Assembly: GCA_951406725.2 (NCBI GenBank)
Contig: OX597815.1
Location: 158,534,001 to 158,598,000, forward strand
Direction: 5' to 3'
Source of the DNA: Octopus vulgaris
Taxonomy: Eukaryota
DNA: 64,000 bases
Below the pieces are notes generated by a model that saw nothing but the letters and a program-made list of their open reading frames with translations, made no database searches and was not told the DNA's origin. Below, piece after piece: positions 12,300 to 59,213 of this stretch. The translations under genes and the position numbers were made by a program. Each line of letters begins with the position of its first letter. Positions within the stretch are counted from its first letter, which is position 1.

Positions 12300-12478
12300 A
12301 CTCTCTTCATCTTGCAGAAGCACGATGCGACGCACATCAGATGTTGAAGTGATCACAGAGCAACGCCAAATAAAGTGTTTTGTTCAAGAATACAACACAC
12401 CATTCGGTCCAGGAATCGAAATCTTGATCTAGAGGTTGTGAGTGCAATACCCTAGCCACTAGGTCACGCACCTTCACA
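12300..12478 (-). mobile_element. SINE family B-related head
   Basis: AAGTGTTTTGTTCAAGAATACAAC...GGTCCAGGAATCGAA...CCCTAGCCACTAGGTCACGCACCTTCAC matches 700-809. Confidence 0.7.
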
Positions 12479-30194: not shown

Positions 30195-30470
30195 GTCTTT
30201 GTTGTTGTTTGTTCCTTCTCGAGCCATGCCTGGCTCATAAGGACCAGTTTCCCGGTTTCATTGGCGTATAGGTTTCTCACCTGGACGGGACGCCGGTCCG
30301 TCACAGGTGAGCTGCTAGATGCAGGAGGAAAGAGTGAAAGAAAGTTGTGGCGCCTGGAGCTTAGGTGTTTCACTCATAAACACACACACACATCGCCCGG
30401 CCTTAGATTCGAACCCGTGATCTCTCGACCGCGAGTCTGCTGCTCTAACCACTAGGCCATGTGTCTCCAC
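30195..30470 (-). mobile_element. SINE family B
   Basis: Head GGAGACACATGGCCTAGTGGTTAGAG with B box GGTTCGAATC. The body is related to 14047. Confidence 0.8.
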
Positions 30471-48652: not shown

Positions 48653-48678
48653 TCCCGTAAATAATAATAATTTATAAT

Positions 48679-48757
48679 CACGGGTATATGGCGTAGTGGT
48701 TAAGAGCGCGGACTACTAACTCAAGATTCCGAGTTCAATTCCCAGCAGTGACCTGAA

Positions 48758-48789
<32 letters not shown>

Positions 48790-48997
48790 ATAATAATAAT
48801 AATAATAATAATAACAACAACAACATCGAAAAATAACTAAGGAATGAGAACCCAGGTTCTAAATTTCCCCAAGACACCTGATGAAGGCTGGAGGGTATAT
48901 CAGCCGAAACGTTGTGTTAACAACAAACAAGAAGAGGACAAATATCCATTGAATGTAAATAATGTACATAATTGCTCATCTCTTAAATATAGAACTG
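48679..48997 (+). mobile_element. tRNA-headed, hammerhead-containing short element (putative PLE-linked SINE)
   Basis: A box TGGCGTAGTGG (48689-48699), B box GAGTTCAATTCC (48731-48742), a (TAC)n(TAA)n spacer, and a hammerhead at 48873-48918. Homologous to 1237-1430. Confidence 0.8.
48873..48918 (+). ncRNA. minimal type-I hammerhead ribozyme, apparently intact
   Basis: GACAC-CTGATGA-A-GGCTG-GAGGGTATAT-CAGCC-GAAAC-GTT-GTGTT. Stem I is GACAC/GUGUU, stem II is 5 bp, stem III is the palindrome AACGUU, and predicted cleavage is after 48913. Confidence 0.85.
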
Positions 48998-49075
48998 GAA
49001 TAATAATAGTATTTTTATATAAGCTTAAAGCTTATAAACTCGGCGCCGTATAAAGAACAAGTCGCACTGAACTAC

Positions 49076-49182
<107 letters not shown>

Positions 49183-49257
49183 CGGTGTGAATGGTTTTTT
49201 ATACGGCGTCGAGTTTATAAGCTTATAAAAAAATACTTTATTTATTAAAAAATGCTG

Positions 49258-59029: not shown

Positions 59030-59213
59030 ACTCGACATTACCTGTACAGGTGCAACAGGGTTCCACATGTTCACATGTTAGCTGTCGAAATGATCGCAGA
59101 GCACCGTGAAACAAAGTGCTTTGAGATGACAATACACGCCCGGTCTGGGGATCGAACCCATGATCTCACAATCGTGTGTGCAACTCCCTAACCACTAAGC
59201 CATGCGTCTTCAC
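59030..59213 (-). mobile_element. SINE family B-related head
   Basis: GGGATCGAACCC...CCCTAACCACTAAGCCATGCGTCTTCAC, similar to 12300-12478. Confidence 0.7.

Follow-up and report, generated by a model that had tools for sequence, protein, structure and literature searches.

The unit of about 320 bases at positions 48679 to 48997 of the window (the whole stretch of 64,000 nucleotides of octopus DNA analysed here) is almost certainly the detached pLTR of a protein-coding Penelope/Poseidon-type element. A preliminary description of this DNA had suggested that it may be a separate SINE/retrozyme hybrid living on borrowed PLE machinery. Mobilisation by that machinery is supported; the separate hybrid is not, because the unit in its entirety, including the head, is the pLTR of the autonomous element, and it is also contradicted by a 3' half that is protein-coding, by solo and ORF-linked copies that have alleles and age in common, and by head-bearing copies (11 of 57) that enter the ORF. 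The explanation that we judge best, at slightly better than even confidence, is that the element carries a Pol III head in its own pLTR, begins its cDNA internally, and yields solo units from short products.

The unit and its parent element

All parts of the unit lie on the forward strand. It is a solo pLTR in its long form, with tail, running to the distal 3' end, a classification that rests on the same unit flanking the ORF at other loci and on the bimodal 3' ends of copies. It opens with a tRNA-derived head (48679-48757, with the tRNA-like +1 at 48682), recognised by its likeness to tRNA-Arg and by a pile-up of 5' ends, which holds an A box (TGGCGTAGTGG, 48689-48699) and a B box (48731-48742, core 48733-48741), both read from the sequence and the latter also from a column profile. 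There follows an (ACT/AAT/AAC)n trinucleotide spacer (48758-48824), variable in length and a frequent target of other retroelements. The stretch 48844-48997 encodes the beginning of the PLE protein, from the start codon through the first 51 codons, and is stop-free in this copy; within this coding sequence lies a minimal type-I hammerhead (48873-48918) with a predicted cut after 48913 and a predicted need for a dimer. Copies end preferentially at about 48964-48972 and at 48994-48997, and these two ends (48964-48997 overall) bound a tail of about 26 nt. The preliminary description had placed the boxes, spacer and minimal hammerhead at the same positions, and it was also right that the first run of four or more T comes at 49012, just past the end of the unit. 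Immediately 3' of the unit lies a MITE-like arrangement (49002-49242), with a (TA)n(CA)n core between two inverted arms that are about 90 bp long and 82% alike.

A second copy of the pLTR occupies 1237-1430 on the same strand, in the native position behind the ORF. It had been described as the same unit following a PLE endonuclease, and it does sit behind a broken GIY-YIG-type endonuclease frame (the 3' end of a PLE ORF, with spacer, at 936-1236); the likeness fails at the hammerhead, where the CUGAUGA core has been deleted.

At other loci the head stands directly behind the endonuclease stop in 14 of 20 cases found by a stretch of the element's protein, and in 19 of 20 chosen from the same match list for long open frames (the two sets have one locus in common); the 3' end of the unit continues directly into the ORF in 25 of 30 loci found with the N-terminus of a relative. 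Three of these N-terminal loci (L190, L196 and L208) have a second endonuclease end upstream, and are therefore partial tandems. The frame from the ATG at 48844 crosses the hammerhead and goes on into the ORF in frame (in L162, L241 and others), and the N-terminal frame of the unit is identical to the N-terminus of relative P0003 at 12 of 20 positions (E 9e-6). An intron at the unit's 3' end, where a GT..AG stretch occurs, was considered and ruled out, as the ORF reads across it in frame. The order of the element is accordingly read as head, AAT spacer, ATG, hammerhead, RT, endonuclease, stop, about 25 nt, and the next head, with partial tandems.

As in Penelope/Poseidon, a single ORF encodes RT plus, at its C-terminus, a GIY-YIG endonuclease: an open frame of 569 aa gives an RVT_1 match (E 2.7e-6, slightly below the curated cut-off), and the endonuclease is recognised from its motif and from Pfam GIY-YIG matches that come from relatives, with none on this family itself. 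At E<=1e-30 there are 2,744 relatives, and the closest (P0001, P0002 and P0008/P0166) stand at 60-68% identity. The linker between RT and endonuclease is without the extra zinc finger that, in the available text of PMC8557442, marks Neptune and Nematis, and this again agrees with Penelope/Poseidon. A second PLE family in the host genome (G000) does have a zinc finger in this linker and is in that respect Neptune-like; its members (L261-L266 and L268-L270, for example G000:C15:43316698-43323231) are 95-98% alike, with open frames of 626-1,181 codons and partial tandems.

Further agreement comes from pLTRs that arise from partial tandems, with an inverted 5' copy and an optional tail. The inverted arm is found at the 5' end in many loci, and is a known PLE trait in the accessible parts of PMC8557442 and PMC4209133. 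Of 131 tail alignments, 62 stop in one narrow zone and 54 in another, with about 26 nt between the two (tail lengths in the PLE literature are 30-40), and by analogy with anole PAc these two preferred 3' ends may be internal reverse-transcription starts bounding the tail. The element passes every structural test run and seems to behave like Penelope/Poseidon, an assignment made by structure and not by a tree with named clades.

Several side observations concern the same loci. Copies with a 5' pLTR tend to stop about 260 or about 395 bases into the ORF (L191, L193, L194, L196, L201, L203 and L209), perhaps at further internal RT start sites. In L078, L088, L114 and L131, RT-bearing LINE-type elements, which we take to be Dong/R4-like, sit in the AAT spacer of the pLTR, and an RT frame with a PLE-type motif at L140:185-1342 (reverse strand) comes from yet another family.

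The hammerhead had been called intact, and as a motif it is: stem I, CUGAUGA (48878-48884), stem II, GAAA (48906-48909) and a palindromic AACGUU are in place, with a GUU triplet at the expected cut, and stems I and II are preserved through two-sided changes across seven aligned PLE ends, at 8 of 13 predicted pairs (on the same alignment RNAalifold drew four false pairs across the hammerhead core). What does not bear the description out is Rfam, which at E<=10 matched neither a hammerhead nor a tRNA on 48660-49010, and gave simple-repeat artefacts only among the matches listed (150 of 558) from a scan of the whole window. Since the fold of the region does not beat that of shuffled sequences (z -0.78), it is core motif and covariation that carry the ribozyme call. 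By these two marks the pLTR holds a minimal type-I hammerhead, as Penelope/Poseidon pLTRs do, and its cleavage is a prediction; the core is intact in 35 of 105 arms, with loss elsewhere due mostly to CpG decay. A dimer requirement is reported for such hammerheads in the available portion of PMC4209133.

The unit is abundant: in the 2.8-Gb genome a 26-mer from its 3' part has 7,715 exact occurrences (reversed control, 0), against 737 for a 26-mer just upstream of the head, a drop that fits a defined start at the head. Solo and ORF-linked copies are not separate lineages. No allele split was seen between 37 ORF-linked and 78 solo copies at 22 variable sites (lowest p 0.02, at a CpG), their median identities are 0.927 and 0.938, respectively, and their divergence is the same, at about 6-7%. 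With SINEs the unit shares a tRNA-derived head with A and B boxes; a composite, independent origin with a propagating lineage of its own, the other mark of a SINE, is not what we found, the unit being native to the element and without solo-specific alleles. Nor do the unbiased loci, which are solo or head to head, have the head-to-tail arrays with at least two hammerheads that characterise retrozymes. Small internally deleted families do occur, and among 81 matches one junction is common to six, all on C29, and another to two. These families with fixed junctions comprise L241, L244, L245 and L246 on C29 and L247 and L249 on C24; the C29 family, a head-less unit of about 290 bp with hammerhead, is in tandem in L244, and it alone looks like a nascent retrozyme.

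The tRNA-derived head and the 5' ends of copies

Compared with 25 distinct host tRNA sequences of six isotypes (63 candidates scored), the head shares 51 identical positions with tRNA-Arg(TCT) (z 7.3) and 49 with Arg(TCG) (z 7.8). On this sample of candidates the donor may be tRNA-Arg-like, tRNA-Arg being the best match among the host tRNAs compared. ARAGORN found no tRNA anywhere in the window, and the head is therefore tRNA-derived rather than a tRNA; run on the 40 best copies of the head, the same program returned 0 of 40 at default and five matches at a lowered threshold. Conservation of the boxes, on which the preliminary description had made its case depend, is borne out, both consisting of the commonest letters over 107 copies, with variation in the A box only at CpG. 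In the loci examined, 190 of 193 head matches precede a trinucleotide-type spacer (173 by pattern and 17 of the remaining 20 by eye). A free donor SINE for the head was sought in the window and rejected: the head profile matched only the two pLTR copies there, other tRNA-headed repeats giving E of at least 0.03. Several further repeats that have a tRNA head with A and B boxes are abundant and only weakly like this head; they lie at 740-797, 12409-12466, 30402-30463 and 59146-59203 of the window, among other places.

The 5' ends of copies pile up at the start of the head and are not random, the outcome that the preliminary description had named as support for a SINE. In an unbiased sample (the first 80 of 100 listed places, all on C1, picked solely by a 3' motif and with pairs merged), 57 copies reach the head and 23 stop short; 12 of the 23 end at or near the spacer, at least two of them with a large insertion there. 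Among the 42 copies that reach +5, 30 end at -4 to +5, one ends at -8, and 11 extend at least 22 bases into the ORF side. As 11 of the 57 head-bearing copies extend past the head, some templates began further upstream, which counts against the Pol III reading. The cleavage site of the hammerhead gathers no pile-up of 5' ends in the 80-copy sample. Copies that contain a 5' pLTR and the start of the ORF were read by hand, and 7 of the 12 reaching the head stop at -3 to +8; templates that contain the ORF therefore start there too. The edge of the pile-up lies about 10-14 bases upstream of the A box, which is the usual distance of a Pol III start in tRNA and SINE genes, and on the simplest reading the pile-up would mark a true RNA 5' end at this distance, a few bases upstream of the tRNA-like +1.

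Junctions upstream of the head complicate the picture. The first 100 of 2,772 head-pattern matches, classed by hand, comprise 38 with native upstream sequence, 33 fold-backs and 29 other junctions, the last being a class that the pattern undercounts; 62 of the 100 lack the native 15 nt upstream. The fold-back junctions are centred on a native 5-bp palindrome at the pile-up edge, which counts against the Pol III reading. Because the edge sits on this palindrome, it was compared with control hairpins elsewhere: two ends fall at a stronger cDNA hairpin in the head, two at stem II of the hammerhead, and three to five at a same-shaped hairpin in the tail.

RNA-seq on L166 drew on about 6% of each of three runs and on one contig set. 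Depth was the same on the two strands and tracked copy number, and neither starts nor ends piled up in the unit, the predicted cut site included; the signal, from standard paired libraries unsuited to circles, reflects read-through of old copies. At L166:1305-1351 all three RNA runs contain a 45-nt GT..AG skip on the strand opposite the endonuclease, possibly splicing of host read-through RNA.

Transcription of the element

Animal Pol III is stopped by TTTT. Over 2,392 positions of the 2.4-kb ORF the commonest letters contain 12 TTT and no TTTT, an absence with p 0.007-0.05 by null model, for one sequence and tested after the fact; the codon-model null has frame errors near the N-terminus, and its p values are approximate. 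Individual copies hold 0.44 TTTT per kb, in line with the 0.59 per kb expected from neutral decay of a TTTT-free source. For comparison we used 79 related metagenome PLE loci, 59 once 20 redundant ones were removed. An A and B box pair beside the ORF occurs in none of the 79, many of whose contigs end early, and in these relatives without the boxes the mean is 4.7 TTTT per kb, or 2.1 where T content is alike; TTTT-free ORFs make up 1 of 51 long ones and 1 of 20 at like T content. The second, younger PLE family of the host, which is without a B box, has 4-27 TTTT per ORF at a higher T content, and host LINE-type frames hold TTTT near expectation. Other results count against the Pol III reading: GGGG is likewise absent from the commonest letters of the ORF (p 0.12-0.17), two TTTT sites in the ORF are common to 2 of the 3 older-subfamily copies covering them, and one relative, L275, has a TTTT-free ORF without a tRNA head. 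L275 was considered as a second Pol III case in its own right and ruled out, having no head and a T-rich pLTR.

That a Pol III start at the head of the pLTR makes the transposition RNA of the element is, on sequence evidence, modestly favoured. Transcription would begin about 10-14 nt upstream of the A box. With TTTT missing from this strand in the dominant lineage, it could then pass through both the ORF and the pLTR that follows, and the protein might be made from uncapped Pol III RNA or from Pol II read-through. The RT/EN protein would nick AT-rich DNA and begin cDNA internally at the two preferred 3' ends; the cDNAs would end at the RNA 5' end or earlier and be joined head to head, often via a short palindrome, and short products would give rise to many solo pLTRs, this unit among them. 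Such solo pLTRs are, by analogy, likely dead ends, because they are without the downstream ORF stretch that the anole enzyme needs: PAc requires RNA beyond its RT start sites, according to the available text of PMC11167929. Counted against the Pol III reading is the argument of Kojima 2024, in the part accessible, that such elements are held to about 1.3 kb by the processivity of Pol III. We put forward only tentatively the fuller proposal that an autonomous coding retrotransposon has switched to Pol III, having captured a tRNA-Arg-like promoter and purged T-run terminators from its 2.4-kb ORF, with full-length or multimeric RNA and possibly cap-free translation.

The main alternative, to which we give less than even credence, accepts the pLTR and regards the head as a captured SINE or tRNA piece, with a Pol II start or no promoter role, a pile-up produced by Pol II or by fold-back, and an absence of TTTT due to chance. 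The known Penelope promoter is indeed internal and TATA-less, as the available text of PMC2377424 has it. A Pol II start at the same place would yield the same pile-up, tandem templates exist, and the palindrome with its 33 fold-backs in 100, the one TTTT-free ORF in 20 relatives of like T content and the two TTTT sites common to older copies are all on its side. Yet hairpins of equal or greater strength elsewhere in the unit gather few ends, the ends that do pile up lie at the A-box distance expected for Pol III, the A and B boxes are both intact, and TTTT is depleted relative to the 59 relatives. Processing of the tRNA-like head in a long read-through RNA, in the manner of RNase P, could also make a 5' end here, and about 13 of the 29 non-fold-back junctions fall at +3 to +5, near the tRNA-like +1; we nevertheless give this very little credence, as fold-back junctions need template upstream of the tRNA +1, the head does not fold as a tRNA, and the ends are smeared from -4 to +11 with no peak at +4.

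The model of the preliminary description, in which the solo unit propagates itself as a Pol III SINE/retrozyme with PLE protein supplied in trans, can draw on solo copies that are several-fold more numerous than ORF-linked ones and that retain the boxes without TTTT, on the 5' pile-up at the head, and on the small internally deleted families with fixed junctions (6 and 2 of 81 matches). We consider it unlikely: solo copies have neither diagnostic alleles nor a shift in age, the unit is native to an autonomous element, copies carry PLE hallmarks (the inverted 5' arm and two 3' ends) and not those of ribozyme-cut tandem monomers, the cleavage site is without a 5'-end pile-up, and the anole PLE, as far as the accessible part of PMC11167929 goes, requires RNA beyond the RT start sites.

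Comparison with known systems

The available sources already describe tRNA-headed hammerhead SINEs (Sm-alpha) and pLTR-derived retrozymes. A tRNA-derived or Pol III promoter in a protein-coding PLE is something for which we found no report in the literature searched, and a prior description, for example in a repeat database, is possible. Papers on cephalopod repeats, in their accessible portions, name Penelope and tRNA SINE families, and the head-hammerhead anatomy of the pLTR was not found in those portions. The available part of PMC10886601 states as a working rule that Pol II serves the protein-coding retrotransposons and that Pol III is confined to short non-coding ones. If the Pol III reading is true, the element would violate this rule, as a coding PLE that has a Pol III head and no terminator in its ORF, and would raise the question of how uncapped RNA gets translated, with the hammerhead within the first codons as an obvious suspect. 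It would also provide a tangible path by which an autonomous PLE could give rise to retrozymes and to hammerhead SINEs like Sm-alpha, since small deletion families occur here alongside solo pLTRs that already have a Pol III promoter. In practical terms, annotation would wrongly label such copies, in their tens of thousands, as tRNA SINEs.

The closest relatives in structure are the Penelope/Poseidon PLEs (anole PAc and Drosophila Penelope), which, so far as PMC11167929, PMC8557442 and PMC4209133 are accessible, likewise have one ORF with RT and a C-terminal endonuclease and pLTRs in partial tandems, as well as an inverted 5' arm, an optional tail between two 3' ends, and a minimal hammerhead overlapping the start of the ORF. 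In anole PAc the hammerhead is described as overlapping the ORF start, and reverse transcription as starting at two internal sites that bound the tail (PMC11167929, available text). The octopus pLTR differs in its intact tRNA-derived head with A and B boxes and in the position of its ATG, about 35 nt upstream of the hammerhead core. The promoter of Drosophila Penelope differs as well, being internal, TATA-less, located in the pLTR and accompanied by an intron in the part of PMC2377424 available.

Among non-coding elements, Sm-alpha and Sj-alpha of Schistosoma resemble the octopus unit as short repeats with a tRNA-derived head, apparent Pol III transcription and a hammerhead (accessible parts of PMC6765202 and PMC2770079), but there they are described as SINE-like tandem repeats that are non-coding, have canonical hammerheads and are assigned no autonomous parent, whereas the octopus unit ends a coding element. 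The non-LTR (animal) retrozymes are also short hammerhead units descended from PLE pLTRs, according to the available text of bioRxiv 10.64898/2026.07.22.740005; they occur in head-to-tail arrays, and the octopus solo unit is by contrast dispersed, mostly head to head. The TRIMp3 elements (Cassandra, Helenus and Ajax) have a Pol III promoter, from 5S rRNA or tRNA, inside a terminal repeat, with a proposed origin by SINE insertion (PMC10886601, in the part accessible). However, these are non-autonomous LTR elements of <1.3 kb whose autonomous partners, by the same source, must use Pol II, whereas the octopus element is protein-coding and has about 2.7 kb per unit.
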